Source: a virus. Taken from it: a stretch of DNA of 64,000 nt. Location of the stretch: IMG/VR virus record IMGVR_UViG_3300042868_005339; one strand, written 5' to 3'. A program made the translations under genes and the position numbers. The notes under the pieces were generated by a model. That model worked only from the letters and a program-made list of their open reading frames with translations, searched no databases and was not told where the DNA came from. This document shows, piece after piece, positions 2,632 through 63,618 of the stretch (the stretch's first letter is position 1; every line of letters begins with the position of its first letter).

Positions 2632-2715
2632 GGTAATGACATGTTGGAGGTTAGACGGTTGCTTCTGTTATCAGCAGATGCAGCCGTTGTTTTTATAAGC
2701 TTTGCTGATCTAAAG

Positions 2716-6453: not shown

Positions 6454-6473
6454 TTGGTTTTGTGGTATGGTTG

Positions 6474-15222: not shown

Positions 15223-15230
15223 AATATCTC

Positions 15231-15530: not shown

Positions 15531-15533
15531 GCA

Positions 15534-16694: not shown

Positions 16695-16699
16695 ATATT

Positions 16700-39636: not shown

Positions 39637-39777
39637 ATGAATGAAAACAAAAATCCAAACGCAGTTGAACTTGGAAAAAAAGGCGGCAGCGCAAAAAGTA
39701 TGGCTAAGTCACAATCGTCTAAACTTAATGGCAAAAAGGGCGGAAGACCGAAAAAAAATGGTGGGAAATCAATTTGA
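39637..39777 (+). CDS. 46-aa Lys/Gly-rich basic ORF
   Basis: MNENKNPNAVELGKKGGSAKSMAKSQSSKLNGKKGGRPKKNGGKSI. It overlaps the P3 start. Confidence 0.3.
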   Translation: MNENKNPNAVELGKKGGSAKSMAKSQSSKLNGKKGGRPKKNGGKSI

Positions 39778-45833: not shown

Positions 45834-46481
45834 TTACTTCATCCAACAAGGATGATCTGTCGGCCACTTTTCACGAAGCTCAGGCTCGTCCATGGCATCT
45901 TTTGGGCACCAGCACTTCATACGAAGATCGCAACTGCAAATCTGGCACGTCTTCAACAACGGATCGCTAGGCGTATGCCGACTCGTTAAGAACTGGTTGA
46001 TATGCCCAACAAGGCTACGAGTTGAGCAACTAACACAGAACTCCACAATTTTGTCCGTGTTCTTCGGGCAAGTTGCACAAATAGCCGCTCTTCGATTTGC
46101 TTCTTCTTGATCCACAAGCTCGCCAGCTAAGTACGGCTTGACTGCAGAGTTGTAGAACCGCTTCATCATCTGAAACGCTCCAATTTTAGCCTCGCTATCA
46201 GGATCGCGCTCGACACACAAGTCAGGACGATGCTGGCAAAATGCTGCTTGCATGATGAGGCCAAGATTCGCTGGAATCTCAATGCCATTTCCCTCCAGGT
46301 GCTCTTGAACGGATTTCGCTAGATCACGCCATCCGTATCTAACGAATACCGTGTTTGTGGCTTCAACGTGGTAGAAGAATCCGTAGGTATCACCCGTGAT
46401 AACAGACGTTGGAAATAACTCACGCAGCTTCGCGTGGTTAAATTCCTTTGGGATGGTATTTTTGCGGATGAGTTCCTGCAT
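45834..46481 (-). CDS. Hypothetical protein with C-terminal Cys cluster
   Basis: CATCPKN...CVSCS...CQICSCDLRMKCWCP. It starts 1 nt after the stop of the giant gene. Confidence 0.6.
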   Translation of the reverse strand: MQELIRKNTIPKEFNHAKLRELFPTSVITGDTYGFFYHVEATNTVFVRYGWRDLAKSVQEHLEGNGIEIPANLGLIMQAAFCQHRPDLCVERDPDSEAKIGAFQMMKRFYNSAVKPYLAGELVDQEEANRRAAICATCPKNTDKIVEFCVSCSTRSLVGHINQFLTSRHTPSDPLLKTCQICSCDLRMKCWCPKDAMDEPELREKWPTDHPCWMK

Positions 46482-46482
46482 G

Positions 46483-49400
46483 TTAGCTTGCTGGTGTGTA
46501 GCCTCTATAGACCTTCTTTAGCACCCTGTCGCGCACGTCGTCAGCTTTGTCCAACAGGAATGCTTTGGCGCGTTCTGTGGGCATCTGGAGCGCACGCTGG
46601 CCGTAGCGTAGGAGCATCTGCTTGTAACCCTTTCCTGTTTCGAGGCTGTAGTTGTCAGCTTCTTCTTGCGTGAGGGAGCGACGACGAGCGCCTTTGCCAA
46701 CCATGCGGTGTTCGGCATTAGCAGGAGTCAGCCAGATTCCACGGGAAATGAGAGCGCCGAGAACCTTGTAAGCTGGATCAGTTGGTTTCACCATGAACTC
46801 GCGGCTTCCAGGATACACATTGCGTTGGATTTGCTGGCCCAAGATGTCGTAGTACTCCTTGCCTTCGTAGCGACGATAAACAGGAATGTGTGAGGCTGTC
46901 TTCTCCCACAGTGTTTCGTATTTACGCAGATTTGGATCTTGCGCGTAGTCGATGTCCTTCAGGAATCGAGGAACGAAACCGCCAGCGTAGCTCGACATCA
47001 CCTTGGCAAAACGCTCCATGCGCTTCTCGTTGGGGTCTTTACTGGACAAGCTGTTGCCGAATAGCTCTTGGAACTGAGAAAGAGCAGGAATATCAGCGGC
47101 AGCAGCAGCACCAGACATTGCGGCACTTGCCATAATTTGAACCACGTTTTTGTCGTTCCATTGGTCTGGTGAGAAGCGGATTAGATCAGCCAAGCTACCA
47201 ATAGCTGCAAGCGCAGATGAAATGGGCCAGTTAGCATAACTAAATACTGTGTCATTGTATCCAATGGTGTACTCCTTCTCGCCAGCGGCTAGCTTTTGCT
47301 GCTTCTTTTCCGGTGTAAGGTTTCCCCATCCTCCGTTGATAAACAAGCCGCCTCGTTTTTCGTCATCTGGTTCTTCTGCAATAGCTTTAAGTAAGTAGTA
47401 GCCACCAACGGATAGTATCACTCCAACAAGCTGATTGCGTTGAATTGAGTCAATGAATGCTTCTTTTCCAATGATGCGATCAGGATCAAATTCAGCCTCG
47501 AATGCACGAGCGAAACCAATGCCCGGAATGAAGCTCAGACCTTGGTTGAATTTGTTTCCAGCGAAGCGTGCGAAGCGAACACCACCAAAGTTGGCTACAT
47601 TATATGCAGAGAACTGCATAAGATAGGCGAATGCCAACTCAAGTCCAGAAAGAATCCTATCGCCATTCTGTGCTGAGTCACTCCATCCGCGTTGAGCTTG
47701 CTTTAGGAATCTATCAGAACCAGCTTCAGCATTGGTCACAAGCGATCTGATCGCACGATAGCCGACACCTCCAAGTCCAGACGGTTCAAGCGTCATGGCA
47801 CCTTGCATTGCCATTTGGTTAGCGTTCTCAGACACTTTGCCAAACTTATCCAATTCCTTCATCATGTCTGCCAAAGCGTAGGAATCCACGATTGCCTTAT
47901 CATGCAATGATTTTGGAGGTGTGCCACCGAAGTCTTTCTGAATAATGGCATCCTTGTAAGGCTTCAGGTCCGATTTCTTCTCAAGTGCTGCGATCTTTTC
48001 TGGATCGAGTCCAATTTGTCGGAATACGATGGAAAGCGAGCCTTCCTTGGTTAGTCCGCCATTGAACACGTCAAGAGCTTTCAGCAAACGGCTAACAGTC
48101 CGCATAAACAAGCCTGCGCTCTTAACGAGAATCTTATCAGACTTCGCCATTTGCTCTGCTAATTGGTTACTCTTGCCGATATTTGCCCACTGCATGTTCT
48201 CAGTCACATCATTCATGGATGGATCAAGAAACACTGGATCACCCGTCACAAGGTATTGCCAAGCGATGTTGGCTTGACGACCAAAAGCACTCAATAATCG
48301 AGCTAACGTCTTGTATGCGCCAGCAAGCTCAGATGGAAGCTGCTTTGGATTGGTAAATCCAGAGATGAACACGCGAGACAATGCCGTGGAAAGCTCGAAT
48401 GCACCGCTGGCAACAGCCAAGCCGATTGAGACGATAGTATTTGGACCAGAGAGCACACTGGAAACCCAGAAGTCAGCGATCATCTTTACCACTGGAATCT
48501 TGAGTTCGCCTTGCAACACCTCAAGTAGCTTGTAAGCAGCAACTTGGCGCTTCACAGCGTTCAAACCTTCGTCTTGAAGAACCTCGATAAGCGAATTTAT
48601 CTTCTCACGCTCCGTCTCGGTGAACTCGGACTTGATGCCAAATTTCTCAGCTATGATCTTCGCGATTTCATCGTTGTCGAAGATGCCAAGGTTGATGTCC
48701 TCAACGATACGCATGCGATTTTCCTGAAGAGCTTTAGCAGCTTTTTTGCTGAGATTACCCTTTGCCTCTTGCTCACGGATCAATCGCTCCTGCATGCTGT
48801 CGAGAATGCGTTTACGCTTGGATTCCCATGCTTCCGCGAACAAGTCTGCGAGACGTGCTTTTTGCTCTGGCGTTGCGTTCTTGAGTTCTTCGTTGGCAGA
48901 GATGGCGTCAAAGATACGCTGGCGGTATTCTTCGACTGTCTTTGCGCTTTGCGAGAGGAGCTGACGCCAAGGGATAGGCGTCCTAAGAGGAATTTCCTCG
49001 CCACGGCGCATGTTGTTGATCTCGTTGATCATTCGTTGCAGGGCTTTGGGGCCTTGCAGAATGTTGAATGCAGCCATTGCTTCGAGATCAGTCTTTTCGC
49101 GTTCAGCAGTCTTGAATAGGCGTTCAGCCACATCAGGTGAAACATCCAATTTAGCGAGGCGTTCAGCAAACTTTGATTTCTCAACTGGATCAGAAACTTG
49201 ATCCTTGAAAGCCTTGTTAATGGAGTCACCAGACGTTGATTTGGATAGGTCTTTGGAACCTTGGCGCAACCTTTCCTCAGTAGAGTAAATAAGTCTGGAT
49301 GCTTGTTTGTCGGCAATCTCAACTCGGCGCTTCTCGATTTTGAATTTCTTCATTCGAGCCAAGTCGGAACGCTCTCTGGATGCGGTTAGGAATAAGCGTT

Positions 49401-52400
49401 CAGAAACCTCTTCACCAACCTTGAGCGCGCCCAGTCGTTCTGCGAATTGCTCAAATGATACAGGGTTTTTAACCTGATCTCTAAATGCTCGAATGATGGA
49501 GTCTTTTTGCTCCTTTTTTGACATGCCTTCAGGTGGATTCTTGAATCCTTGGCGATACAATTCCTCAAAGCGATAAACAATTTGAGATGCCTTGTTTTCG
49601 GCAATCTCAATTTCGTTGGCGATCTCTTCTGCTGTTGGCTCAATAGGTTGACCTTCTGCAACACGTTTCTCCACCGTGTCGATGATCTCCTTGCGCTTCT
49701 TGCGTTTTTTCTTCTCTGTTGGCGTATCGGTTGGTGATTCCTCTCCAAGCAACTTGCCCATAATGGAGCGAAATTCAGCCAAGTCTTTTGCCTCTGCCGC
49801 ATCCGCTTCCTCATCCGACATTTGCAGAATGGCGTTAAGCTCGCTTCGCTCTGCATCTGTCATGGATGCCTTGGCATTTGCTACCTTCATATCCTTGCGA
49901 CGTTTGTAGAAAGCAAATCTACGAACCAGCATCTTTGCCCTTTCCCACAAGGTCTTATCTGCACCTTCAAATACCTGTTCACCTTCTTTGATTAATGCCC
50001 ACTCATTATTGTTGACGACATCCTGAGCTATCTCATCCACCGCCTGCTGATTGGCCTTATCAGAATTCTCATACGAGTTCTGCGTGAGGCTAGTCGCATT
50101 CTCGCTTCCGAAGTTGGAAATAAGGATATTTGTTCTTGCCTCCTTCATCACCTTCTCTGCGATTTCACGAATGAACATCCAGCTATAACGAGCTTTGTTC
50201 ACAAGATAGCGTCGTTGCCCAAGGTGTTGACCTTTCTTGCTACCCACGCCTTGCCAGAATGCAGATAGGCGCTCGCTAAGTTTGGATAGTTGCTTCTTTC
50301 TATCTGGAGACTTCGCCTCGCGTGCAGCGTTGTCCACACGTTGACGAACTTCGATAGTGAGGGCGTCTTGGGCCATCAAGTCTTGCTCAATGCCGATGCT
50401 TTCAAGGAATGCCGGGGAGATGACTGAGTTGGCAATATCATCAAGCGAAACGCCTTCATTCTCAAGGTTGTTGACGTATTTGATGGCATTATCGCTGTAT
50501 TCTTCAGAAGATTTGATCTCGCGGTCAATTGGCTTGAAGTTTGTGAACTGAACACCTCCAAACGGAGCCTTAGTTGTGCCACTGTTGATGTCCTTAATAT
50601 TCTTCGCGAACTGCTTGGTTGCAGCGTCTTCAGGATCAATCATAGATGCCCTTGCGCCAGTCTGCTGATAAGCCATCGCCAGCATCATTTCAGTCTCGTT
50701 GATACGATTCTTGAGAATATCGCCAAACTCGCCAGCCTTTGCAGGAGCGATGGCATCACGAATCTTTTGTAGCATTTTCATCACGCGCTCAATGAAGCGG
50801 CGGAATAGCGATGCTTCCGAAACTGTTTGGTGCATGTCTTGCTGAATCATCTGGCGCACAAACTCGGACATCACTATGCTGATGTTGCCATTTGGAGATG
50901 AAAATAGCTCATCAATGTCACTTGGAGTTGCGCCTGCACCGTAAAGTTGGCGAGATGCTTGAATCGCATCAAAAAGTATCCGTGTTGCTTTTACTGGATC
51001 ATTGCTTGATGCCACAACCTCCCTCATTTCGTCCAACATGGATTTATCGCTGTCGATGGCAAATTCAGTAAACGGCTTACGCCTTCCGCTGGCAATCCAT
51101 GCCTCACGTTGAACTGCAAGATCAGCCGCATGAATCAGTTCCTCTACCAAAGCATTGCCAATAGTTTCAAAAGCACTCGCCTCATCTAGGCCGAAGCTGA
51201 TTCCAGCCATCCGCTCACTAAGTTGTGCGGCATTGATGAGGATGGTTGTGGCCCCATTTTCATCCGCCATAACAGCCAGTCCACCTCCGATGTCGTTAGA
51301 AACTTCCTGAACTCTTGCTCCAATTCTGGACGCAATTTGAGCATAATCGGCAAAAGTGTAGCCACCACTTGCCATTCCCATGTCAGGTCTGGCCCCGGCT
51401 TTCCCTTCGCGATTTTCCCCTCTTCCTGCAATTGCCTCACGATTTCTAGAAACTTCTGATTCGACTCTTTGTGCTTGTGGTATGACTCCCTGTACTCCTT
51501 CTGGAAGGCCATCGAAGAGTGGTGTCCCGCTATCAGTCTGTCCAGCCCGGCCAACTCCAGAACCTTGTCGTAAACCTCCACCAAGTCCGGCCTTTTTGCC
51601 GGTGTAATTATCCATATTGGCTTCACCAGAGCGGTCCAATTGAATTGGTAAAGGGATTCGCCCTCCATTGGATATAAAATCCCTGAGTCGAGTAAGTACT
51701 GTATCATATAATTCTTGGTTGATTCCTCCAGATGGAGCCGGATTCGCAGCAGACATACCACGAAGCATGGAAATGACATCATCCTTAGTCATGTCGGTAG
51801 GCGGCATGATAATCGCAGAGCCAGCGCGTTCGCCTTCGGTGGTGAATGTAGCAAATGGAGACTCACCTTCAATCAACAGCGCCCCACTGTCCTCATACAG
51901 CCCTTGCAGGATGCGGCTGAACTCGGTTTCCGTCAGATCAGGCATCGACTGCTTCACGATGCTGAAAAGCTCGTCTAGCGGCACCGATGGACCATTTGTC
52001 TTCGGAGCAATATCGTATGCTGCGCGAATAGTAGAACGCACTTCCTTGTCGCGTTCGTCGTAGTCAGTGTTGCGAGCTACTTCAGCGCCACTGTTGAATG
52101 CGGCATCATTAGGGGAGTCGTATTCGACTTTGGATGCCATTGGCTGTGAGGCAGATTCCAACTCGTTCATTAGCGCGTTAACTTCGCTAATCTCGTCTTG
52201 TAAACGCTTGCCAACTTGGCCGTTTTTAGCCATTGTAAGAGCGGTTTTAAGAGCATTCGTAATATCAGTCAGCAATGCCTTCATCGCCTCAACAAAGCGC
52301 ATCCATCCAGTCTCGGTGGTGAAGTCTTGACGCTTAAATTGAAGTAACTGCCTGCCAACTTCCATAGCAAAAGCTGGTGCGTTTTTAGACTGTGCTAAAC

Positions 52401-55400
52401 TTTGAAGAATTACCTGAATGTCATTTGTTGGTGACTGTGGATTATAAATATTCCACGCGGTAACAATAACATTAGCCGCTTTTACATCGCCATTTTTCAA
52501 GCCATCAGCAGCAGCTTGATACATCTCAGAAAGCATTTCTGTGTATTGCTTTACTTCAAAATCTTCAAACTCGCCAACTGATCCATTATCCTGCCACAGC
52601 TTGTATGTATTAAGATGTTGAGCGGTGTGAATGATCTCCTCCTGAGCCACATCATATATGAAGGCAAAGGCGGTTGTTGCGTCTGAGTTTTGCAACTGAA
52701 CTAAACCTCTAGTGTCGAATCGCACTTCAATTGAGGGATTAGCTCCCGCAATGAATAAACTAGCTGGTCTGCCTTCATTTGTCCTTTTGTTGGTAATGCG
52801 AACAGGAAGTAACGTGGCATCGAAGGAATAACGCGACGAAATGGCCTCAAGTCCAAAGTCTTCCATAGCCTTCGCCCTCTGAGTTGGCGAAAGCTCATTC
52901 CAGTTTGACTCTGAAACAGCTTTTCGTATTGCCTGCGCTCTTGGAGAGTTGTCTCCTGTCGAAACTCCCTCCATGCGCTGGCTACCATATCCCTCGGATG
53001 CGTAAGGACGAACTGATGTATCATAAGTTTCATATTTGGTTTTTCCACCATTCACCAGAATATCGGCATTCACCTTCTCCGAGTTCTTCAAGCTATTGCG
53101 AATCAAGCGTAAAACGTCCTTGTAGTCCTTCAGCGTAGGCTCGCTCGTCTTGCCAGTGATCTTCTGCCAGATGCCACGCAGGAATTGCATGAACTCTGCC
53201 AAAATGCCATCACGCGGGATTTCAACCATCGAGTCGAAGTCGCGAGTCATCGCTTCTTCAAGGATGCTGAAGTAGCTCACCTGATTCGTGCGCCAATCAG
53301 AGTATTCGCTGTAGGATTCAGCAAGCGAATCAAGCTCCTGTGGAGAGTACATCCGGCGCAGGAACGAGAAAATCTGCATCTTCTCCTTCATCGACAAGAA
53401 GAACATGCCTTTGTGGATATTCTCATGAAGAATAACGCGACGAACCGCCGCTACTTCTGGCGTAGTGCCTTGAAGATTGGCTAGCTTGCGATCAAGATCG
53501 GATACACCTACGTTGTCCGTGAAGACAATCGGCTGTCCATTTTCAGACATGCCTTCGATTTTTGAGTTGGCGCTTACTGCTGCCCAAGTCTCAGGATAGC
53601 GAACGCGATTAGCTGGATCAGCAAGGAAGTCCTTAGATGTGCCAATCCAGGTGAATAGCACATTTGGAATCTCGCCTGAACGATTGAGAATCGCGACAGC
53701 TTGATTGGCATCGGTTGGATTAACGGTGCCTTGAACGACGTTCGTGCGTGTTTTCTGAATGAGCGAGTTGAGCGTCTTGAGGTTTAGCTCATCGCGCTTC
53801 TTTTGTGCGGCTTCCGCCTTGGCCTGCTCCTTCTCGTCACGCTCGATTTCTTTGGCGAGCTTGGCATCGGCTGCATCACGCTTAGCTTGAGCTTCTGACG
53901 CTTCCTTATCAGCTTTGAGATAGGCTTGAACAATCGGACGAGAGCCAACGAGTTTGGGAAATGCAGCACGAAGCACATCCATGTCTTTGCCACCGCTAGC
54001 GAAGTAGGCTTTTGCGGCAGCGATCTTTTCTGGACTCCATTGCCTTTTGCTCTCGATCAAATCCTCTTCCAAGAACGCCATTGCGGCATCTGCAATGTCC
54101 GCTTTTTCGTTTGACTCTATGGCAGTTGTAGCAGATTCTTGCTCAAAAGCAGGGATCGACCCCTCTGCTGGTTGTTGAACAACACTGGCTACCGCCGCTT
54201 CCTTAGCCAAGGGAGCGGCGGTTTCTGTTGGTGTGGCTACCGTTGTGGTTTGGGGGGATTCTTGAGTGGAATTGTCTTTAGTCCATGCCGCAAAGTCGTG
54301 CTCAGTCTTTGTTACTTTGAAAATGCTATCGCCATCGCCTTTTTCGAGAACGAAATCATTGCCTCTCTTTTTTGGAATGTAGCCATCCTGCACCATTTGG
54401 GATACCACATCTGCCTTGGTACCAGAGTATATTTTCCCTGCCGACTGACTACGGCGTGAAGCTGGTTGAGACAATACGCTTACAGCTTTTTCAGCAGACA
54501 CACCCTTCATTCCTAAGTCTTGAGCGAACTTTCTAGGAACCTCTTCTTGAGAGGCTTTCTTCTCGGCTTCCTGTCGCTCCTTATTCTTGAGGTCTTCGAT
54601 AGATTTTGCGCGAGATTGAGAATTTTTACGTTCAATCTCTCCAGCTTTCAATGCTTCCTCTTCCGTATCAAAAAGGTAGTCTCCAAATCCGCGTTTATTG
54701 GAAGTCTGAACTGCCCACTGTGGCTGATTGTTAAGTTTAGTCTGGTAAACAGAACCAATGCCTACCTCTTGGCCTTTTTCTGCACCACTATCTTTGGTGG
54801 TGGATGCTGCGGGTTCGGCGGCTTGTACGCTGCCTGAAGGAGTATCTTGAATTGGGGGCGCTTCATTAGTCGGCTGGAAAACGTAGAGGTCGCCTTGCTT
54901 GACGTAGCCTTGTGGAAGTTTGATGCCGTAGGTGTCAACGGCGGCGGCGGAGACTGGTTTGCTGTCACTGGTGGCTAGTAATATAAGGTGTTGATGAGTA
55001 ATGCCAGCGCCCCACTTGCCCTTTGAAATCTGAGCCACCTCATACATGTCCGACAGTGGAACATTATACTTGTCTGTAATATTCCTGAATGCATCTCGAT
55101 CCTTGCGAGAATCAACCCAACTATTCAGGCTTTCTTGGGCGGCATCGCGAGTCTTTTGAACATTGATCGTTACGTCGTTTGCCTTTTTTGGGAGTGTTAA
55201 AGCCTCCTCCGGCGTCATCTGCTCCGGCTTCGTCACATCCCGCTCAATGGCGCTGCCTCCCGGCATGACCGTGCCTTCGGTAGCGGGCGTCGGCGTCCCT
55301 TGCGGGGTGATTGGTGGAGCTACTTCTTCTTGGATTTGACCTTCTGCGGCAACTTCTTGAGGCTGGGCGTTTCCTTCACCCAGTCCTTGCAGTTCCATTT

Positions 55401-57081
55401 CGGGTCTTTCTTGGCGTAGCAAGCCTTCATCTGTGATTTGCTCTTGAATGGCATCTGGCGCTGTTTCTATGGGTTGAGGTTGAATCGCCTCACCCACCCC
55501 TGCACCTGCTTGCACAGTTGGGGGCAGCACAGACATTTCAGGCGCGATTTCGCCATTGGAGTCAGTGATCGTTTGTGAGAGATTTTCAGGCATCTCCATT
55601 GCTGGAGAAGGTGTTACTGCTGGAAGCTCAATTGCAGGCGCTACCTGTGGCTGCGGAGTATTAACCACGCCTTGAATGATATTGCGGGCTGCTGTCGTCG
55701 CCTGAGATACATCGGAAGACGTGTTTTCAGCCGTTGTGACGATGCTATCAGCGGTGTTTACTGCGGCAGTTAGGCCGGGTGAAATAGCAGGCTGTCCAAG
55801 TTGCGATAAACCACGAATGTTTTGCCGAGAAAATGGAAGCTCTGTTGAGCGAATATCTTCGCGGTTGAAAGGCAACTGCGTAGGACGAATATCTTCACGG
55901 GTAAACGGAAGTTCGGAAGCTCTAATGTCTTCGCGATTGAATGGCAGATCGGTTGCTCGAATATCCTCACGGTTGAATGGAAGCGTTGTGACTACTCCAT
56001 CTGTTGGCGCAGGTGCTGTGGTCGGTTCTTCTGGAACAATTTCAGTTTCAACAACCTGCTGCTCAGCCTGAGGGCGCAAGGCGCGATACCCACGATTAAT
56101 AGCTGTTGGTCCAAGTCCAGCCAGGCCCGTCAATCCAGTCATTGCTAGAGTTGTTGGGGCAACGTTTGTGATCCCTTGGGTATAATCCTGCACCGTCCTA
56201 TCTGGCAAAACAACACTCTCAGGTGCTTCACCTCGAAGAACGCTTTGCTTAAATTCTTTGTTGATACGATCCTGCTCAACTGCGGTAATCGCTTCTGTGC
56301 CAACTTCACCAGCAGCAGCGCCGACACCAGCTCCCACCGCTTTAGCTCCAGTAACCTTGGATAGGGCATTGGAGGCGAGGCTCATGATGCCATTCTTACC
56401 GCCGAGAGCTTTACGAATGTATTTTCCAGCGCCTCCAAGGGCCATGTTGCCGAGAGCTTCTGGGCCAGCTTCGGCAGCGCCAAATTTGCGGGCCAATGGG
56501 AGCAATTCTTCGTATGCCTCATTTTGCTCTTCTGGAGTCAGCGGACGTTGCAGCTTCTCTTGGAAGAAATTGTCGATTCTTTCGCGGGAATCATCAAGAA
56601 ATTGAGCGCCAGCCATGCGATAGGCCATCAAAAGCGATGTTCCTGCTGCTGCCGAACGTGCTGCCGCTGGACTCTTAGTAGCAAGAGCGGTTACTGCCCC
56701 TGCCGCAAGGCTTGGAACCAGTGTTGATCCAGAAAATCCAAGGCTTGGAGTCGCTTCTCGAATTGAGGATGAAACCGATGATGCATCACCTCCTGCCATA
56801 GCGGCAGCTTCGGAAGCATTAAGCTCTTCCTGAAGAGCCCGCATGTCTGCCCGACTTTGCGCGTAGCCCTCACTGCGCTGCCAAGGGTTTTCTAATCCTC
56901 CAAACGCCTGACGCATTGAAGCTGGAACGCTCGTTCCAAGAGAGGTAAAAGCCCTTCCAGTGGCAGAAAGAGTGTCAGACAGGTCGAAAAACGGCTTCTC
57001 CTCGACTTTTGGATACTTGTTCAGCCAAGATTCCTGATTAACTTTGGGATATTTTGTGAGCCAGTCTGTTTCAGAAGCCAT
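46483..57081 (-). CDS. Giant 3,532-aa multi-module protein (probable virion-internal/ejected protein)
   Basis: Uninterrupted ORF among virion-type genes. It has hydrophobic Ala/Gly segments at the N-terminus, tandem repeats, three (H/E)ExxH modules and a C-terminal ~900 aa with several TM-like segments. Confidence 0.85.
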   Translation of the reverse strand: MASETDWLTKYPKVNQESWLNKYPKVEEKPFFDLSDTLSATGRAFTSLGTSVPASMRQAFGGLENPWQRSEGYAQSRADMRALQEELNASEAAAMAGGDASSVSSSIREATPSLGFSGSTLVPSLAAGAVTALATKSPAAARSAAAGTSLLMAYRMAGAQFLDDSRERIDNFFQEKLQRPLTPEEQNEAYEELLPLARKFGAAEAGPEALGNMALGGAGKYIRKALGGKNGIMSLASNALSKVTGAKAVGAGVGAAAGEVGTEAITAVEQDRINKEFKQSVLRGEAPESVVLPDRTVQDYTQGITNVAPTTLAMTGLTGLAGLGPTAINRGYRALRPQAEQQVVETEIVPEEPTTAPAPTDGVVTTLPFNREDIRATDLPFNREDIRASELPFTREDIRPTQLPFNREDIRSTELPFSRQNIRGLSQLGQPAISPGLTAAVNTADSIVTTAENTSSDVSQATTAARNIIQGVVNTPQPQVAPAIELPAVTPSPAMEMPENLSQTITDSNGEIAPEMSVLPPTVQAGAGVGEAIQPQPIETAPDAIQEQITDEGLLRQERPEMELQGLGEGNAQPQEVAAEGQIQEEVAPPITPQGTPTPATEGTVMPGGSAIERDVTKPEQMTPEEALTLPKKANDVTINVQKTRDAAQESLNSWVDSRKDRDAFRNITDKYNVPLSDMYEVAQISKGKWGAGITHQHLILLATSDSKPVSAAAVDTYGIKLPQGYVKQGDLYVFQPTNEAPPIQDTPSGSVQAAEPAASTTKDSGAEKGQEVGIGSVYQTKLNNQPQWAVQTSNKRGFGDYLFDTEEEALKAGEIERKNSQSRAKSIEDLKNKERQEAEKKASQEEVPRKFAQDLGMKGVSAEKAVSVLSQPASRRSQSAGKIYSGTKADVVSQMVQDGYIPKKRGNDFVLEKGDGDSIFKVTKTEHDFAAWTKDNSTQESPQTTTVATPTETAAPLAKEAAVASVVQQPAEGSIPAFEQESATTAIESNEKADIADAAMAFLEEDLIESKRQWSPEKIAAAKAYFASGGKDMDVLRAAFPKLVGSRPIVQAYLKADKEASEAQAKRDAADAKLAKEIERDEKEQAKAEAAQKKRDELNLKTLNSLIQKTRTNVVQGTVNPTDANQAVAILNRSGEIPNVLFTWIGTSKDFLADPANRVRYPETWAAVSANSKIEGMSENGQPIVFTDNVGVSDLDRKLANLQGTTPEVAAVRRVILHENIHKGMFFLSMKEKMQIFSFLRRMYSPQELDSLAESYSEYSDWRTNQVSYFSILEEAMTRDFDSMVEIPRDGILAEFMQFLRGIWQKITGKTSEPTLKDYKDVLRLIRNSLKNSEKVNADILVNGGKTKYETYDTSVRPYASEGYGSQRMEGVSTGDNSPRAQAIRKAVSESNWNELSPTQRAKAMEDFGLEAISSRYSFDATLLPVRITNKRTNEGRPASLFIAGANPSIEVRFDTRGLVQLQNSDATTAFAFIYDVAQEEIIHTAQHLNTYKLWQDNGSVGEFEDFEVKQYTEMLSEMYQAAADGLKNGDVKAANVIVTAWNIYNPQSPTNDIQVILQSLAQSKNAPAFAMEVGRQLLQFKRQDFTTETGWMRFVEAMKALLTDITNALKTALTMAKNGQVGKRLQDEISEVNALMNELESASQPMASKVEYDSPNDAAFNSGAEVARNTDYDERDKEVRSTIRAAYDIAPKTNGPSVPLDELFSIVKQSMPDLTETEFSRILQGLYEDSGALLIEGESPFATFTTEGERAGSAIIMPPTDMTKDDVISMLRGMSAANPAPSGGINQELYDTVLTRLRDFISNGGRIPLPIQLDRSGEANMDNYTGKKAGLGGGLRQGSGVGRAGQTDSGTPLFDGLPEGVQGVIPQAQRVESEVSRNREAIAGRGENREGKAGARPDMGMASGGYTFADYAQIASRIGARVQEVSNDIGGGLAVMADENGATTILINAAQLSERMAGISFGLDEASAFETIGNALVEELIHAADLAVQREAWIASGRRKPFTEFAIDSDKSMLDEMREVVASSNDPVKATRILFDAIQASRQLYGAGATPSDIDELFSSPNGNISIVMSEFVRQMIQQDMHQTVSEASLFRRFIERVMKMLQKIRDAIAPAKAGEFGDILKNRINETEMMLAMAYQQTGARASMIDPEDAATKQFAKNIKDINSGTTKAPFGGVQFTNFKPIDREIKSSEEYSDNAIKYVNNLENEGVSLDDIANSVISPAFLESIGIEQDLMAQDALTIEVRQRVDNAAREAKSPDRKKQLSKLSERLSAFWQGVGSKKGQHLGQRRYLVNKARYSWMFIREIAEKVMKEARTNILISNFGSENATSLTQNSYENSDKANQQAVDEIAQDVVNNNEWALIKEGEQVFEGADKTLWERAKMLVRRFAFYKRRKDMKVANAKASMTDAERSELNAILQMSDEEADAAEAKDLAEFRSIMGKLLGEESPTDTPTEKKKRKKRKEIIDTVEKRVAEGQPIEPTAEEIANEIEIAENKASQIVYRFEELYRQGFKNPPEGMSKKEQKDSIIRAFRDQVKNPVSFEQFAERLGALKVGEEVSERLFLTASRERSDLARMKKFKIEKRRVEIADKQASRLIYSTEERLRQGSKDLSKSTSGDSINKAFKDQVSDPVEKSKFAERLAKLDVSPDVAERLFKTAEREKTDLEAMAAFNILQGPKALQRMINEINNMRRGEEIPLRTPIPWRQLLSQSAKTVEEYRQRIFDAISANEELKNATPEQKARLADLFAEAWESKRKRILDSMQERLIREQEAKGNLSKKAAKALQENRMRIVEDINLGIFDNDEIAKIIAEKFGIKSEFTETEREKINSLIEVLQDEGLNAVKRQVAAYKLLEVLQGELKIPVVKMIADFWVSSVLSGPNTIVSIGLAVASGAFELSTALSRVFISGFTNPKQLPSELAGAYKTLARLLSAFGRQANIAWQYLVTGDPVFLDPSMNDVTENMQWANIGKSNQLAEQMAKSDKILVKSAGLFMRTVSRLLKALDVFNGGLTKEGSLSIVFRQIGLDPEKIAALEKKSDLKPYKDAIIQKDFGGTPPKSLHDKAIVDSYALADMMKELDKFGKVSENANQMAMQGAMTLEPSGLGGVGYRAIRSLVTNAEAGSDRFLKQAQRGWSDSAQNGDRILSGLELAFAYLMQFSAYNVANFGGVRFARFAGNKFNQGLSFIPGIGFARAFEAEFDPDRIIGKEAFIDSIQRNQLVGVILSVGGYYLLKAIAEEPDDEKRGGLFINGGWGNLTPEKKQQKLAAGEKEYTIGYNDTVFSYANWPISSALAAIGSLADLIRFSPDQWNDKNVVQIMASAAMSGAAAAADIPALSQFQELFGNSLSSKDPNEKRMERFAKVMSSYAGGFVPRFLKDIDYAQDPNLRKYETLWEKTASHIPVYRRYEGKEYYDILGQQIQRNVYPGSREFMVKPTDPAYKVLGALISRGIWLTPANAEHRMVGKGARRRSLTQEEADNYSLETGKGYKQMLLRYGQRALQMPTERAKAFLLDKADDVRDRVLKKVYRGYTPAS
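55804..55983 (-). repeat. 5 x 36-nt in-frame tandem repeat (LPFNREDIRxxx)
   Basis: LPFNREDIRATD / LPFNREDIRASE / LPFTREDIRPTQ / LPFNREDIRSTE / LPFSRQNIRGLS. Confidence 0.9.
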
Positions 57082-57089: not shown

Positions 57090-58790
57090 TTATTTTCGCC
57101 GAACTTCGCCATCCGACCCTCTAAATTTAGTCCCCTTTGGCAAAGCATCAACTTCTTCTTCGGTTGAAATTTCTACAATGGATTCTTGAGCGGGCTGTGG
57201 CGATTGAGATGGTGATCTTGATTTTTTTTCGTCAATATATGATTCGAATACATCGTTCCATGTTTTTCCGCTAGATAATCCAAGATCGTAAGCATTTGGA
57301 AGTTTTTTCAACGGCTCAAAGGATGGAATCTTATTCCTCCAATCAACTTTGGATAGAGCCTTGAAGATATTACGCGTCGCAACCTCATTAGACCGAACAT
57401 TTCCGTATTTAGCTACGATTTCAGGTCCAACTTTGTCGCCTGACAATACTTCATTCTTAATGAGAGAATTAAGCAATGTATCTGTGGTCATGTTTAGTTT
57501 TTTTGCGACCTCTTTGACCTTGGAGTCCATTACTGACTTGACATTATCCCATACAGGATTCGCAACTGATCTATCTTTCTCCATGGAGAATTGTATCTCT
57601 GCATCTTTGAGATTATTCTCAAGTTTCTCAGCGTATTGCAAGCCCTCAGTAAAATCTGCAAATGTTTTAGGCTTTGGATTATTCACATAATCACGAAGAT
57701 TGCTTAGAGCTTTCTCTTTAACTTTAAGTGAAACATTCGGATCTGAAATAGCAGCCATATAAGTATTCTCATCCGCAGAAGGATCATTGATCCCTTGCAA
57801 AACCTCAGACTCATCAACCTTGAGAATATTTTCAGCTTTTGGCGCGGCCAAATCCTTCATGGTTTGCCGGAATGGCGCTGCGGCCTTAGGTGCCTCTGGT
57901 GGCCTAAATGGAATTACAGTACCATCCTTAGTTGCGGCAACAGGAGTTTGCGCTGGACTGTATATGCCTCGGTATGATCCGCGCAATTCGTTGAACAAAC
58001 GATCATACTCCTCTACCAGCTTATCGAATTTTGGATTTGGTATTTCTGCGCCATCTTTGTCGTAAAGAACGCTTTTCCCTAATTTCTCCATCTTGTCGAT
58101 CTCAGAACTAACAAGTTCAAAATCCTTTTGCTTCGCTTGACCAGCAACATCTTTAGCGCCACCGCGAGTTCCAACAGCCTCCCTTGCCGCTTTTCTCATC
58201 TGTCCCTCAAGATATTTAGCCTGCTGAACTGATTTGATGGACGGAACCAAGTTGGCATCTCCGCCATATTCAAGGAATCCTCCAATGGCTGTTTGCAATT
58301 CCTCATTCGCCTTCGCAGCAGCAGCGCGTTCAGCATCCATCTGTTGCTTGCGAGCAGCTTGATAATTCTGATTCTGAGCGGCATACAGTCCAGCTACGTC
58401 GCTAAACCGAGGATCACTAAATGCTAGAGGGTTGCGAGTCGCAAGATCGCGGTATTTAGCTCCGAAGTCCTCGCTCTCAGGATTCAAATTACCACCTGCC
58501 AATTCGTTCGCTGCACGCTCTACCTGCGCCTCTATCTCCTGCTTCATGCGCAAGTCTCTAGCGTCCTGCGCCACCTTGTCGTAGGCTATTTGAGCTTTTT
58601 GAGCTTCAAATACTGGAGCTTGGCGTTGAAGACTGCGAAGTTGATCTATTGCGGCAGCACCTTTGTAGAAATCTTCAACCTCACGATCAAGTGATGCCAC
58701 GCCGGTAGATTTCCGAGTTTGGTTAAAAACTGGATTGGCGGGTGCCTGAGCAGGCATTCCAAGGTAGTCGGCAAGGTCAATGACTGGCAT
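57090..58790 (-). CDS. Virion-type coiled-coil protein
   Basis: 566-aa ORF, rich in Ala/Gln/Lys, immediately upstream of the giant gene. Confidence 0.6.
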   Translation of the reverse strand: MPVIDLADYLGMPAQAPANPVFNQTRKSTGVASLDREVEDFYKGAAAIDQLRSLQRQAPVFEAQKAQIAYDKVAQDARDLRMKQEIEAQVERAANELAGGNLNPESEDFGAKYRDLATRNPLAFSDPRFSDVAGLYAAQNQNYQAARKQQMDAERAAAAKANEELQTAIGGFLEYGGDANLVPSIKSVQQAKYLEGQMRKAAREAVGTRGGAKDVAGQAKQKDFELVSSEIDKMEKLGKSVLYDKDGAEIPNPKFDKLVEEYDRLFNELRGSYRGIYSPAQTPVAATKDGTVIPFRPPEAPKAAAPFRQTMKDLAAPKAENILKVDESEVLQGINDPSADENTYMAAISDPNVSLKVKEKALSNLRDYVNNPKPKTFADFTEGLQYAEKLENNLKDAEIQFSMEKDRSVANPVWDNVKSVMDSKVKEVAKKLNMTTDTLLNSLIKNEVLSGDKVGPEIVAKYGNVRSNEVATRNIFKALSKVDWRNKIPSFEPLKKLPNAYDLGLSSGKTWNDVFESYIDEKKSRSPSQSPQPAQESIVEISTEEEVDALPKGTKFRGSDGEVRRK

Positions 58791-58793
58791 AAA

Positions 58794-59411
58794 TTAAGCG
58801 GCTTTTTTCTTCTTTTCCTTTTCTCCACCTTTTTTAATAGCGGCCAAAACTCGCTCTTTATCAGCACGCGCATATTTATTGTCCACCCCTTGGCGAGCAG
58901 CAGCTTGACCGAAGAATTGCTCCTTGGACATGCCATCGAATGTGGCTGGTTTTCCAGTGCTGGCAGTTGCTGTTCCGGTTCCGTAGCGGCTGGTAACAAC
59001 GCGCTCTTGCGGGCCATAGGAGGCAATGACTCCGCCTGTTGGGCGCTGTTGAAGCTGAGTTGGCGTTGGTCTGGATGATGGCATTGGAAGATTTCCAGCT
59101 ACTAGCATGCGCTTTGTGAGTTCCAAATCTGCCGCTTCTGGATTTGCAGGCACATACGAACGCACGCCTTGTTCCTCCTGCTCACGCATTCTCATTCGAG
59201 CAGCGCCACCAGCATTCCTCAACCTCTCGCGAGCGGCTTGTAGAAGCTGATCGGCGGTTGAGATTTGCGGCCTTGTATTGACAAAAATGGACTGGAAATT
59301 AGGCGTGAGTCTGGATGCTCCACCTAAAGATTCATAAGTGTTTCCAGTGTATGGATTGCTCGTTGCATTGAATGTCGGTGATTCTCTGTCACCAGTGATT
59401 GTGGTAGCCAT
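58794..59411 (-). CDS. Hypothetical virion-type protein
   Basis: 205-aa ORF. Confidence 0.55.
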   Translation of the reverse strand: MATTITGDRESPTFNATSNPYTGNTYESLGGASRLTPNFQSIFVNTRPQISTADQLLQAARERLRNAGGAARMRMREQEEQGVRSYVPANPEAADLELTKRMLVAGNLPMPSSRPTPTQLQQRPTGGVIASYGPQERVVTSRYGTGTATASTGKPATFDGMSKEQFFGQAAARQGVDNKYARADKERVLAAIKKGGEKEKKKKAA

Positions 59412-59416
59412 GTTTT

Positions 59417-59776
59417 TTAGCGGTAAATAGTGATTAATCCTGGATTCATCGCTCCAAAAACTGAATTGCGAGACATCTTTTGAGGCTGAGAGATTCCTTC
59501 AGACTGCATGTTAGATTGAGCAAATGGAGAAAGTGCTTGGTCAAGTTGACGCGATTTTAAGCGAAGCTCTCGCTCAGCGATGCGGTCAGGAGAGTTACGA
59601 GAGCGTCCAACTGGCGTTGAGCGTTGCAGCGATGGTGGCAGCAGCTCATTGTAATTTTGCTGCATGTTTGCCAACTCACCCTTACTAGCTTGTCCTGTAT
59701 TGAAACTGTATGCTGATGGAAGAGTTTGCTTCTTCTTGAAATCATTAAGACCTGATCTGAGTGGTTCGTATGCCAT
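59417..59776 (-). CDS. Hypothetical virion-type protein
   Basis: 119-aa ORF. Confidence 0.55.
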   Translation of the reverse strand: MAYEPLRSGLNDFKKKQTLPSAYSFNTGQASKGELANMQQNYNELLPPSLQRSTPVGRSRNSPDRIAERELRLKSRQLDQALSPFAQSNMQSEGISQPQKMSRNSVFGAMNPGLITIYR

Positions 59777-60870: not shown

Positions 60871-61374
60871 ATGGAAATAACACACAACACGCTTCGTTTA
60901 TTTTGGACTCGCAATCTTGTCGGACACAAGCCAGATCAATCAAAACCGTATTATGCAGGTCTTGATGCTTGTTGGCTTTGGTCTGGAAGTTTAGCTCCAG
61001 ACGGATATGGAAAAACCAAAGTTGGCAATGAGTGTCTATCTGCACACAGGCTATCGTGGATCATTCATAATGGCGACATACCAACTGGGAAAATAGTAAT
61101 GCACCTATGCGACAATCGAGCATGTGTAAATCCTGCTCATCTCAAACTTGGAACTACTCAGGAGAATACAGCCGACTCAGTGCAAAAAGGTCGCAGAAAT
61201 CCGGCTATTGGTAAGCAACTGCCACAATCCAAGTTGAACGAGACGAGTGTTTTGGCAATTCGTGATGCGGCTAGACGTGGAATACCACAGGCTCAAATAG
61301 CGCAAACTTTTGGCCTATGCCAACAAACTATTCACCAAGTTGTTACTCGTAAAACGTGGAAGCACGTTGCTTAA
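60871..61374 (+). CDS. HNH homing endonuclease with C-terminal HTH
   Basis: CWLWSG..DGYG, AHRLSW, HLCDNRACVNPAHLKLGTTQEN and ...IHQVVTRKTWKHVA. It runs opposite to all neighbouring genes. Confidence 0.85.
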   Translation: MEITHNTLRLFWTRNLVGHKPDQSKPYYAGLDACWLWSGSLAPDGYGKTKVGNECLSAHRLSWIIHNGDIPTGKIVMHLCDNRACVNPAHLKLGTTQENTADSVQKGRRNPAIGKQLPQSKLNETSVLAIRDAARRGIPQAQIAQTFGLCQQTIHQVVTRKTWKHVA

Positions 61375-62294
61375 ATCAGTTTTTCTAGCCACCTATCAAA
61401 CTCAGAACAAGATCTTGTTTCTGTTCCTTTGTATGGAAGAAAGTGAGCGCCTAATATTGCCTCACAGTAACGCCTTTGCGCTGTTATGTCATTCACTGGA
61501 TTGCTCAAGAATTGAATGATTCGCGTAATATCTTCATGGCATTCAAAAACAGCACTACTTCCAGTGAATGCTCCAGTTCCAAGTACTGCCGTTGGAAGAC
61601 CAAGCAGACAAGCCTCGGATGCAGTTGTTGAATTAACCGTTATTACGGCTGAGCAATTTGGAAGCAGGCTTCGCATATCGCCATCCATTGACCATGTAAA
61701 CTTGTCTCTTGCTGGATGTTTTTCAAATAGACTGCGCTCTCTCGGATGAGGACGAATCAATAGGTTCGTATTCGCCGGAATCATATTAATTATTGAGTCA
61801 AGAACCCATTCAACACGATCACCTCGCGGAGCTATTGGGAACTCAAAATTGATGTTGCAGTCATTTCTGCACTGTAGAGCAAAAAGTATAGGTCCACTCT
61901 GATCACCGCCAGCAAATGCTTTGGCTCGTAAATGCTTTGATGCGAAATCTTCGCAATCCACATTGAATGATTGCATCCAATGTCTCTCTTTACATAAAGA
62001 AGACTGCGAGAAAAAACCTCTACTATCCACAAAACTTCCAGCCCGTTGTGCTAGAAGAGAGTTCTCCACATGCAGAACATTATTTCCGAACGATGAGGTC
62101 CATGAATGTGGCATTCGACATTGCCAAGTGATGATGTTTGGCGAAGTCTTGAATACCTCTTTATAGTTGGCTGTAGATTGAGTGACATTATGCCAAGTTA
62201 CCTCTGCTCCTTGATCTCTGCATTTGGAATCTACCCACGGTTTAATATCGGATTTCAGGACAATCTCAGTTACCAGAGCGGCCACTTGTTTCAT
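61371..62294 (-). CDS. Capsule_synth (KpsS/KpsC-like) glycosyltransferase family protein
   Basis: ILFALQCRNDCNI, LLIRPHPRE and VITVNSTTASEACLLGLPTAVLGTG. Confidence 0.6.
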   Translation of the reverse strand: MKQVAALVTEIVLKSDIKPWVDSKCRDQGAEVTWHNVTQSTANYKEVFKTSPNIITWQCRMPHSWTSSFGNNVLHVENSLLAQRAGSFVDSRGFFSQSSLCKERHWMQSFNVDCEDFASKHLRAKAFAGGDQSGPILFALQCRNDCNINFEFPIAPRGDRVEWVLDSIINMIPANTNLLIRPHPRERSLFEKHPARDKFTWSMDGDMRSLLPNCSAVITVNSTTASEACLLGLPTAVLGTGAFTGSSAVFECHEDITRIIQFLSNPVNDITAQRRYCEAILGAHFLPYKGTETRSCSEFDRWLEKLI

Positions 62295-63025
62295 TGCTTA
62301 ATAATACCAATAACCTCCCGCAACGCAAGTTCGTGATTATTCCATGCACCAATGATATGATGTATTGGAGAGCGTTTCTGTGATTCCATGCGAGCGTGAC
62401 ATCCTTGCTTATATGTCTGACCCGGTATGACACCAAGATCGTCACCCCAAAGAAGTATAAGAGGAACCTTCAATAGAATTGCTAAATGTGCTAAACCACT
62501 ATCTGTTGAGACAACAAAACGGGAGCCAAGCATGGCTGCTGCGATCTCATCTAAGTTTGTAACTAGTGTCAATCCGCAATCAGATGACATATCTTCTTTG
62601 CCAGCGGCGATAACACGCAAGCCAGCGTCAACAAGACCAGAAGTTAAGTAGGGCCATCCTTCCCAGTTTCGATGTGGAGAACTTGTCGCCTTACCCCTTG
62701 GAGCAACCAATACATCGCAAGAACTTTTATTGGCTGATATTGGAGTAACGTCTATATCAGTTTTTGCTGGTATTGACCAGCTTATCTTCACAAACTCAGC
62801 TTCTGGGAACTGGTTTTTTAACTCTCTTACCACAAGCCTCTCACCCCATCCGTTTAGGTCTTCTGATACATCCACAAAATCAGTCGCCGTTGGGTATAAA
62901 AATCTCCAAGCTACTGGGCAACAAACAGTCAATCTATCGCAGACAATAGATGCGACTCTCCGAACCTTGAAGCTAATCGTATCACCTAGTCTATATCGTT
63001 CAGGGATAACAATAATGTGCTTCAT
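62291..63025 (-). CDS. GT9 (heptosyltransferase-like) glycosyltransferase
   Basis: VVSTDSGLAHLAILLKVPLILLWG, and NWEGWPYL upstream. Confidence 0.65.
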   Translation of the reverse strand: MKHIIVIPERYRLGDTISFKVRRVASIVCDRLTVCCPVAWRFLYPTATDFVDVSEDLNGWGERLVVRELKNQFPEAEFVKISWSIPAKTDIDVTPISANKSSCDVLVAPRGKATSSPHRNWEGWPYLTSGLVDAGLRVIAAGKEDMSSDCGLTLVTNLDEIAAAMLGSRFVVSTDSGLAHLAILLKVPLILLWGDDLGVIPGQTYKQGCHARMESQKRSPIHHIIGAWNNHELALREVIGIIKQ

Positions 63026-63618
63026 GCCAATTCAATCAAGACTTGTTTCTCCTTTGTATTCCTAGCTAAAACGGAAAAATCTGCACCAGTTTTGTTAATC
63101 CAATCCAAAAATGCTTTGAACTCGTGATCTTCGTATCCATTGTAGTTATAAAACTCGTCAAAAAGCAGAAGAGGCTTTTCTGTCAAAATCAACTCACTCA
63201 AAGAGCACAAAATAGTTTGCGTTGAACTGCCTAAATCACAGTCAAAGTGAACAGCTTCTAGCCGTCTTGTAGTATCATGCGATACCGATAAGAAATTTGG
63301 CAGTGTTTCATTGAACAATCCTGGCACAATCTTGACGTTCTCTCGCCATTTGAGCTTACTAACGTCAGTTTTAAAATGTCCAACTGGATGCCCTGGAGTC
63401 CATTCTTCTGGAAGTCCATCAAATGAATCAAATCCAGTAAAAAGAGCATTCGGCCTAACTTCTGCCATGTAATTAATAGACCTGCCATTCCATACGCCAA
63501 ACTCAAATGCGTTACCATTGGTAATTCCAGTGAGGTATCTGTGCCATATTTCGCCACGCGTTTTGCATTTCATAGGAGCCGCCATAACACGGGCGCGTAG
63601 TTCGTAAAATGTTATCAT
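63022..63618 (-). CDS. TylF/MycF-type SAM-dependent O-methyltransferase
   Basis: [31 protein letters not shown] and LLLFDEF. Confidence 0.7.

Follow-up and report, generated by a model that had tools for sequence, protein, structure and literature searches.

A giant cysteine-free protein of an uncultured freshwater phage is probably an enlarged internal virion protein with exchangeable cargo

The IMG/VR virus record IMGVR_UViG_3300042868_005339 contains a single open reading frame (ORF) of 3,532 codons, which lies on the minus strand at 46483..57081 of the 64,000-nucleotide (nt) stretch analyzed here, hereafter the window. We conclude that its product, the giant protein, is probably an internal virion (ejection) protein of the gp16 or IVP-D (internal virion protein D) class that has been enlarged into a carrier of polyvalent effectors. 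An initial annotation, made from the letters alone, had guessed at a 'polyvalent' internal virion protein that is ejected and spans the envelope. An internal or ejected nature is supported by profile homology to gp16/IVP-D, by the place of the gene, which closes a late operon, and by a composition free of Cys. A polyvalent nature is supported by the LPD23, ART-PolyVal, YkuD, Methyltransf_23, helicase and N6 methylase domains that occupy slots in related proteins.

The giant ORF is real, and neither a chance ORF nor an assembly artefact. It starts with ATG and has no internal stop, and the encoded protein contains no Cys and 13 His. A scan of viral contigs with the last 903 residues yielded 21 related loci. 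Seven of these hold the whole gene (3,170–3,776 amino acids (aa), all uninterrupted), and in all seven full-length loci a 507–576-aa ORF precedes it. In the lake-water metagenome run X1, 100% of the sampled words were present, and the Logan contigs of that run, which were built independently, cover the ORF with 0 differences. The uninterrupted frame described in the initial annotation is thereby borne out. In two lake runs (X1 and X3) we also found five alternative joints within the gene, between 54252 and 55447. Four are simple skips of 615, 969, 978 and 108 nt, each a multiple of three; the fifth skips 628 nt and inserts 10, for a net 618 nt. Because the joints are in frame, the gene must be under coding constraint, and variants of its cassettes and linker co-exist in one population. 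The habitat of this lineage is freshwater lakes; a 2.9-kb contig binned with a Chitinophagaceae metagenome-assembled genome (MAG) is a weak hint to the host. On one related contig (L001/L011, positions 2-7514, from a MAG assembly) the gene is represented by overlapping frames of 1,529 and 1,115 aa, reflecting either a frameshift or an assembly error. A scan for promoters and terminators returned nothing exceeding shuffled controls.

The giant protein had no match above threshold in Pfam, PHROGs, NCBIfam or the PDB sequences; the sole Pfam trace was a sub-threshold match to the RmlD substrate-binding family (residues 2489–2553, E 0.0095). Megablast and tblastn searches for the giant protein found no match in 50,697 phage and 72,556 plasmid records, and a look-up of its exact sequence among contigs gave no record. 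Walker A, DEAD/H, GDD, DxDxD and S-adenosylmethionine (SAM) motifs were all absent in a motif scan which, together with the family and PDB-sequence searches, agrees with the earlier statement that polymerase, helicase and methylase motifs are lacking.

Relatives emerged from the C-terminus. Word-indexed searches gave merely 2–11 close fragments, and it was an exhaustive HMMER search that revealed the family. Related loci could also be located by a degenerate DNA pattern for GGFVPRxxKDxD; the family alignment offers no conserved stretch of 7–10 columns. Searched with the last 833 residues, the family comprises 424 clusters (50% identity) at E≤1e-3, of which 189 reach E≤1e-30. Among the 150 best of the 424 matches, the matched region extends to the end of the protein in every case bar one (P0016, about 125 residues short), and the full-length proteins bearing it reach 1,500–4,584 aa. 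An AlphaFold2 model computed from a 61-sequence alignment was almost all helix (predicted local distance difference test (pLDDT) 85, predicted template-modeling score (pTM) 0.78); an alignment of only five sequences gave a pLDDT of 37. Foldseek matched this model to 33 predicted viral structures in BFVD at E≤1e-3. In most cases the match is the C-terminal part of a protein with the name ART-PolyVal, LPD-containing, MuF-C or nuclease. Two T7-like podoviruses are also represented: Synechococcus phage S-CBP2 by its 'Internal virion protein', and cyanophage NATL2A-133 by one protein.

The same link appeared at the level of profiles. A hidden Markov model (HMM) of the family matched P-SSP7 gp16 (38 bits) and two proteins annotated as 'internal virion protein D', gp35 of pelagiphage HTVC119P (25.5 bits) and gp40 of roseophage CRP-114 (23.4 bits), as well as, weakly, Syn5 gp45 (10.6 bits), in each case in collinear segments. 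When the C-terminal family was compared by hhalign with six marine T7-like gp16/IVP-D proteins, the probability was 99.0% (E 3.8e-18, 560 columns). Residues 2841–3528 (nt 46498-48561) align to residues 553–1202 of P-SSP7 gp16, and the rest of the giant protein gave no match to the marine gp16 proteins. These profile comparisons indicate that the C-terminal ~690 aa are homologous to gp16/IVP-D of cultured marine T7-like phages. The shared part covers the C-terminal ~650–690 aa. The giant and the marine proteins are both all-alpha, both are Cys-free (except P60 gp34, with one Cys) and both are encoded by the last and largest gene of a small-to-large run. The marine gp16 proteins are shorter, however (1,210–1,626 aa), and are followed by a tail fibre gene, whereas the giant protein has 3,532 aa, the first ~2,800 of which are without counterpart there, and after its gene come a Cys-rich 215-aa gene and the end of the operon.

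The absence of Cys is a second trait shared with ejected proteins. Across 25 other ORFs of the window Cys makes up 1.46% of residues, compared with 0 of 3,532 in the giant protein (P about 3e-23). Of the 121 family proteins with 1,400 aa or more, 109 have no Cys at all, and the total for the 121 is 21 Cys in 293,506 residues. Cys is retained only where catalysis needs one: the sole Cys of each of two relatives (L009 and L015) is that of the catalytic SWGCMN motif of a YkuD domain. Ejection proteins known or annotated in other phages are likewise without Cys (T7 gp15/gp16, P-SSP7 gp15/16, Syn5 gp44/45, CRP-114 gp39/40, HTVC119P gp34/35 and N4 gp50/51/52), as is the four-gene set of the podovirus MW202801.1 that ends in a family member. 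In contrast, gp12 and its homologues, tail proteins of the same phages, carry 5–9 Cys. A narrow full-text literature search found no statement tying ejection proteins to cysteine residues. The near-absence of Cys may reflect selection against disulfide cross-links, which would block the unfolding and channel threading of a stored protein once oxidised.

Gene order is a third line of evidence. The giant gene closes a minus-strand run of ORFs of 321, 119, 205, 566 and 3,532 aa with gaps of 3–8 nt, thus following the 119-, 205- and 566-aa genes at the end of the late operon. After it come only the 215-aa gene and the end of the operon, which faces a convergent replication module. The immediate neighbours are as follows.

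59417..59776, minus strand: 119-aa ORF with no Cys, His or Trp, the first of the Cys-free set.
58794..59411, minus strand: 205-aa ORF with no Cys, His or Trp; by size and position, a candidate IVP-B/gp14-like protein.
57090..58790, minus strand: 566-aa ORF with no Cys or His, directly upstream of the giant ORF; by position, size and composition, a candidate IVP-C/gp15-like partner.
45834..46481, minus strand: 215-aa ORF with 12 Cys in CxxC-like clusters, starting after a 1-nt gap behind the stop of the giant ORF.

The 215-aa ORF, which matched no family, adjoins the giant gene in 49 related loci, some with just 33–35% identity in the C-terminal domain. A similar order is seen in MW202801.1, a complete 40-kb podovirus genome in which a family member of 1,121 aa closes the structural module. 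Its order runs from terminase, portal and capsid through a glycosyltransferase/methyltransferase cluster to a P22 gp10-like hub; an acetyltransferase and three Cys-free genes come next, then the family member and finally an endolysin. T7 IVP-A belongs to an acetyltransferase family (PMC4819975). The homologue in T7-like phages comes after gp12 and at least two smaller genes, the last gp15-like (Cys-free where checked), and precedes the fibre gene. The initial annotation had described the flanking genes as tightly packed and of virion type. Their packing stands, as they are co-directional with gaps of 1–8 nt. No flanking gene matches any virion family, however, and because the immediate neighbours are without any family match, their virion character is suggested by synteny and composition and is unconfirmed by family. 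The 566-, 205- and 119-aa proteins (57090-59776) have a low-complexity, hydrophilic look. Their His/Cys-free pattern recurs in N4 gp51/gp52 and in the genes preceding the family member of MW202801.1.

We derived the architecture of the giant protein from an alignment of eight full-length proteins (the window copy and its seven homologues). Four blocks (951–1350, 1651–1760, 2141–2480 and 2700–3532) are conserved, and the intervening regions (1–950, 1351–1650, 1761–2140 and 2481–2700) are swapped, resized or absent among the eight. From the N- to the C-terminus, the features are as follows.

Residues 7–26, nt 57004..57063, minus strand: duplicated WL(T/N)KYPKV, with WLTKYPKV at 7–14 and WLNKYPKV at 19–26.
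Residues 101–335, nt 56077..56781, minus strand: Ala/Gly/Leu-rich region (A 17%, G 11%, L 10%).
Residues 336–650, nt 55132..56076, minus strand: Pro/Glu/Thr/Ala/Gln-rich linker, by composition.
Residues 367–423, nt 55813-55983, minus strand: five tandem 12-aa LPF(N/T/S)R(E/Q)(D/N)IR units inside the linker.
Residues 651–950, nt 54232..55131, minus strand: variable cassette, with 5–21% column identity to relatives.
Residues 951–1350, nt 53032..54231, minus strand: conserved block, made of an Ala/Glu/Lys-rich helix stretch and module 1 (1100–1350).
Residues 1219–1223, nt 53413..53427, minus strand: HENIH of module 1.
Residues E1275/E1276, nt 53254-53259, minus strand: candidate downstream Glu ligands of module 1.
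Residues 1351–1650, nt 52132..53031, minus strand: module 2, the first EExxH copy, with EEIIH at 1481.
Residues 1651–1760, nt 51802..52131, minus strand: conserved block, 96–100% identical in close relatives and found in 49 family proteins.
Residues 1761–2140, nt 50662..51801, minus strand: module 3, the second EExxH copy, with EELIH at 1980.
Residues 2141–2480, nt 49642..50661, minus strand: conserved block found in 87 family proteins.
Residues 2481–2700, nt 48982..49641, minus strand: region of two tandem ~90-aa repeats, copies 2494–2583 and 2586–2671.
Residues 2700–3532, nt 46486..48984, minus strand: family-defining C-terminal domain, almost all alpha-helical.
Residues 3212–3238, nt 47368..47448, minus strand: hydrophobic helix, followed by an acidic DEPDDE patch.

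Most features named in the initial annotation could be located. The WL(T/N)KYPKV duplication is present at the N-terminus. The long Ala/Gly stretches correspond in composition to residues 101–335, a region that remains 27–31% identical even to relatives with an alternative N-terminus and whose hydrophobicity is below transmembrane (TM) grade. The Pro/Gln/Glu-rich spacer is the 336–650 linker, within which the in-frame 108-nt population variant falls. The tandem 12-aa LPFNREDIR units had not been listed; Tandem Repeats Finder (TRF) detects no repeat there at the DNA level. Alternative in-frame versions of the 651–950 cassette were present in the same lake samples. The duplicated segment of about 95 aa proved to be the ~90-aa repeats, which share 49% identity across 90 aa (E 8e-27). 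Just before them, at the end of the 2141–2480 block, lies a basic patch, KKKRKKRK (residues 2456–2463, nt 49594-49617), which is mostly invariant in the eight full-length proteins and may serve either to contact nucleic acid or as a site of processing. The earlier claim of several TM-like segments stood in part: four windows score 1.4–1.65 on the Kyte-Doolittle scale, but only 3212–3238 remains hydrophobic over 61 family members (median 1.56), and it is borderline as a TM segment.

Local jackhmmer searches within about 170 family proteins recovered module 1 in 46, block 1651–1760 in 49 and block 2141–2480 in 87. The ~90-aa repeat of region 2481–2700 was recovered in 58 (one or two copies each), and the EExxH module in 15–17. 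Module 3 is present in some relatives and missing in others. At least four distinct conserved module families are thus joined, together with cassettes, in one giant polypeptide, as in multi-domain polyvalent proteins.

The contents of the slots differ between relatives. Above the curated Pfam thresholds, we found LPD23 in the slots of three relatives (L005, L019 and L020), ART-PolyVal in L009 and Methyltransf_23 in L019. The slot that holds LPD23 and ART in relatives holds EExxH module 2 in the window copy. A YkuD L,D-transpeptidase domain is inserted into the first conserved block of L009; L015 carries a corresponding insertion of ~360 aa in which the SWGCMN motif recurs. We also scanned the cargo of 28 proteins with the C-terminal domain against Pfam. 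ART-PolyVal occurred in 9 of 14 closer relatives, alongside LPD23 and GNAT; more distant relatives carried Sno/AAA_34 with Helicase_C_4, ResIII, SNF2, Eco57I/N6 methylase and FtsK-gamma domains. LPD23, ART-PolyVal and others are signature domains of polyvalent proteins (Iyer et al. 2017, PMC5512222). The hallmark Pfam domains of such proteins (MPTase, ART-PolyVal, LPDs and SNF2-methylase) were found in relatives only and not in the window copy itself. On alignment, the cargo appears to consist of conserved blocks separated by slots whose cassettes have been exchanged among relatives.

Module 1 is a probable zincin-type metallopeptidase. It carries the zincin motif, HExxH with a downstream Glu: H1219, E1220 and H1223 never vary among 47 sequences; G1225 (94%), E1275 (94%) and E1276 (89%) are highly conserved. 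Some relatives have HExxxH instead of HExxH, a variant described for MPTase, a peptidase clade of polyvalent proteins (Iyer et al. 2017, PMC5512222). Module 1 had no Pfam match, and a PDB profile search returned no peptidase; the assignment is made at the level of the motif because neither search supports the fold. Weak matches to DUF6782, a putative metallopeptidase family, occurred in three relatives (E 3e-4 to 1e-3) at unlocated positions.

The initial annotation had counted three related (H/E)ExxH modules. All three motifs are present, at 1219, 1481 and 1980, and modules 2 and 3 are paralogous (BLASTP E 2e-11). Module 1 is not their kin; hhalign gave a probability of 1.4%. The EExxH module has its own set of invariant residues (E1481, E1482, H1485, W1496, E1574, R1577 and Q1581), with no known relative and no Pfam model. 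The slot of module 2 is occupied in relatives by LPD23, ART-PolyVal or a methyltransferase.

We propose the following mechanism. A few copies of the giant protein would be packed in the capsid of an uncultured freshwater phage of ~62–66 kb, together with the products of the 119-, 205- and 566-aa Cys-free genes. On infection, the proteins would exit through the portal and tail channel largely unfolded and then refold in the envelope. T7 gp16 leaves partly unfolded and refolds, and a conduit role has been proposed for it (PMC8954989). The C-terminal helical domain of ~830 aa would do the job of IVP-D, first docking in the head and then building or anchoring a trans-envelope conduit, and the ~2,700 N-terminal residues would be cargo for the periplasm or cytoplasm. 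The HExxH...EE module would probably cut the polyprotein into working pieces after delivery, and the N-terminal modules would act on the host.

Several results weigh against this reading. No capsid, portal, terminase or tail gene was recognizable in the window by Pfam, PHROGs, NCBIfam, tblastn or PDB-sequence searches, and none of the 119-, 205- and 566-aa proteins could be matched to an IVP-B or IVP-C family. In the PDB, Foldseek returned no solved structure similar to the model of the C-terminal domain (best E 0.13). Against E. coli T7 gp16 this domain gave only E>1 by hmmsearch and 0.1–0.3% by hhalign, and against the C-terminus of N4 gp50 hhalign gave no link, both hhalign comparisons using a single-sequence template. 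Links of this kind had been made through stepwise merged profiles (Hardies et al. 2016, PMC4819975). Because only one hydrophobic helix is conserved, membrane insertion is tentative. The peptidase call for module 1 is motif-based, and the path through 54881-55297 is supported by short unitigs alone, amid co-occurring variants.

The best-surviving alternative, though an unlikely one, is that the giant protein is a late-expressed cytoplasmic polyprotein that is never packaged, acts within the producing cell (for instance in host takeover or as a scaffold for assembly) and merely shares a helical domain with ejection proteins. The lack of a recognizable virion gene nearby would fit this, as would the small neighbouring proteins, which look disordered and scaffold-like. 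Such a protein would have no obvious reason to avoid Cys over 293,506 family residues, however, a trait that known ejected proteins share, and the homology to annotated internal virion proteins of cultured phages also speaks against it. The ART, methylase and helicase cargo likewise fits the pattern of delivered effectors (PMC5512222).

It is very improbable that the giant protein is instead a secreted effector, akin to a polymorphic toxin, of a non-viral mobile element and exported by a bacterial secretion system. Polymorphic toxins do resemble it in exchanging cassettes at fixed junctions, in having ART and peptidase domains as cargo and in avoiding Cys; a Cys-poor composition is also usual in substrates exported unfolded, and the window yielded no identifiable capsid gene. 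Secretion-system, immunity or conjugation genes were not seen either, however. All of the related contigs belong to a viral collection, with lengths clustered at 61–66 kb; distant members occur in T7-like phages and in complete phage genomes that also encode terminase, portal and capsid; and 185,579 species genomes contained just one true match.

The initial annotation had pointed out that the giant protein equals the N4 virion RNA polymerase, gp50, in size. The size agreement is good (3,532 versus 3,500 aa), but there is no detectable homology, and we give very little credence to a highly diverged N4-type polymerase. The two do have much in common: gp50 likewise has no Cys and is encoded by the last gene of a late operon facing replication genes, after Cys-free virion proteins in a convergent layout with a similar run of gene sizes. 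It also has an HExxH peptidase domain (PMC5512222) and an IVP-D-like C-terminus (PMC4819975). It differs in its RNA polymerase module, which is absent from the giant protein. No polymerase was matched in Pfam or PHROGs, tblastn found nothing in the 50,697 phage records, and phmmer, BLASTP and hhalign comparisons with gp50 were negative; DxDxD, GDD and polymerase-like motifs are lacking, and none of the ORFs in the window is similar to an N4 structural protein. Comparisons with N4 gp50–gp68 and T7 gp13–16 by HMM, phmmer, BLASTP and hhalign were all negative. In view of this lack of similarity, we retain N4 only as an analogy of layout and role. Of similarly slight probability is a tape measure protein of a long-tailed phage. 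The giant protein is itself of great length and alpha-helical and has hydrophobic segments, tape measure proteins can include peptidase or lysin domains, and one of them was matched in BFVD (E 0.35), which is not significant. At about 1.5 angstrom per residue, however, 3,532 aa would set a tail of ~0.5 micrometre; close relatives range from 3,170 to 3,776 aa through cassette swaps, no frameshifted chaperone pair lies upstream and no distal-tail genes downstream, and the C-terminal domain is homologous to podovirus IVP-D.

An enlarged internal virion protein is thus the reading we prefer, and it can be set beside known systems. E. coli T7 gp16 has the same position and presumed role, no Cys in its 1,318 aa, and helical, hydrophobic regions that refold on ejection (PMC8954989). 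It differs in that sequence and profile comparisons show no similarity, Foldseek found no match to the T7 core or tunnel structures in the PDB, and the giant protein lacks the N-terminal lytic transglycosylase. Gp60 of Pseudomonas phage H66 (F116 group), likened here from its description by Hardies et al. 2016 (PMC4819975) and not by direct comparison, is a very large structural protein with IVP-D homology and a methylase that acts inside the cell. That methylase is absent from the window protein and present in one relative (L019). With the polyvalent proteins that Iyer et al. 2017 (PMC5512222) describe, the giant protein shares a giant multi-module polypeptide, a presumed late-gene context and a constant HExxH/HExxxH zincin-like module. 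Its relatives share ART-PolyVal, LPD23, SNF2/Sno helicase with methylase, and YkuD with them. The window copy has none of these, and its EExxH modules and C-terminal domain lack a Pfam model. Hardies et al. 2016 (PMC4819975) had reported that IVP-D homologues host cytoplasm-bound domains, namely the N4 virion RNA polymerase and the H66 gp60 methylase; the kind of protein is therefore known from that work and from Iyer et al. 2017.

The rest of the window is consistent with a tailed phage, as judged from IMG/VR membership, the replication module and homology to phage proteins elsewhere. A plus-strand block at 30–45.7 kb encodes a primase-helicase, a PD-(D/E)XK exonuclease, a probable RecT partner, a helix-turn-helix (HTH)+M78 regulator and HNH endonucleases. 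Three paralogous genes in it (34985-35626, 37235-37981 and 39641-40402, plus strand) are strong HNH-endonuclease PHROG matches; a fourth ORF, at 60871-61374 (plus strand), which resembles HNH genes only by eye, runs opposite to the late operon in which it lies, just upstream of the Cys-free set. Between 28000 and 34000, where genes switch from the minus to the plus strand, the AT skew is strongly positive (up to +0.25), GC is higher, at 0.51–0.54, and long ORFs are few.

On the minus strand, ORFs of 758, 117, 386 (coiled-coil, Cys-free) and 392 aa at 13350-19326 parallel N4 gp59 (portal)-58-57-56 (capsid), of 763, 115, 405 and 401 aa, with no sequence similarity detected. The candidate portal, capsid and 602-aa ORFs had no tblastn or PDB-sequence match, and no window ORF matched a structural protein of MW202801.1 or P-SSP7. 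An 840-aa ORF (10082-12604, minus strand) has three 'DNALVRFDGTTGKLIQNS'-like motif copies between Ser/Thr/Gly-rich stretches and looks like a fibre or spike protein, with no family match. A 661-aa ORF (6474-8459, minus strand) combines an exonuclease PHROG match (residues 16–190) with a LAGLIDADG domain, and its residues 184–284 cross-match unrelated PHROGs, so that it looks like an intein-interrupted gene; in two relatives (L002 and L067), proteins of 757–944 aa have Intein_splicing matches. Glycosyltransferase (Capsule_synth, GT9-like) and methyltransferase family matches lie at 61371-63618 (minus strand) in the presumed late region. A methyltransferase is encoded at 22100-22693 (minus strand), and 20424-22124 (minus strand) is glycosyltransferase-like by eye only, with no family match. 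In MW202801.1 a glycosyltransferase/methyltransferase/NodB cluster lies between the capsid and tail genes. The glycosyltransferase and methyltransferase candidates of the window, all in the presumed late region, may modify virion or host-surface glycans.

These results provide a testable role for the giant 'hypothetical proteins' of uncultured phages, of which the family holds 424 clusters at 50% identity, around a shared C-terminal domain that has neither a Pfam model nor a solved structure. They also connect polyvalent effector proteins with the ejection proteins of podoviruses, in a lineage that swaps its cargo cassette by cassette. Two experimental leads follow, the EExxH module and the family-wide avoidance of Cys as a possible cheap predictor of ejected proteins. 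Speculatively, the C-terminal IVP-D-type domain could be a universal delivery chassis for any Cys-free cargo and EExxH a new family of injected metal-dependent enzymes, with cargo slots that behave like the variable ends of polymorphic toxins. If that were true, near-absolute avoidance of Cys would be a sequence signature by which ejected phage proteins might be found in unannotated genomes.

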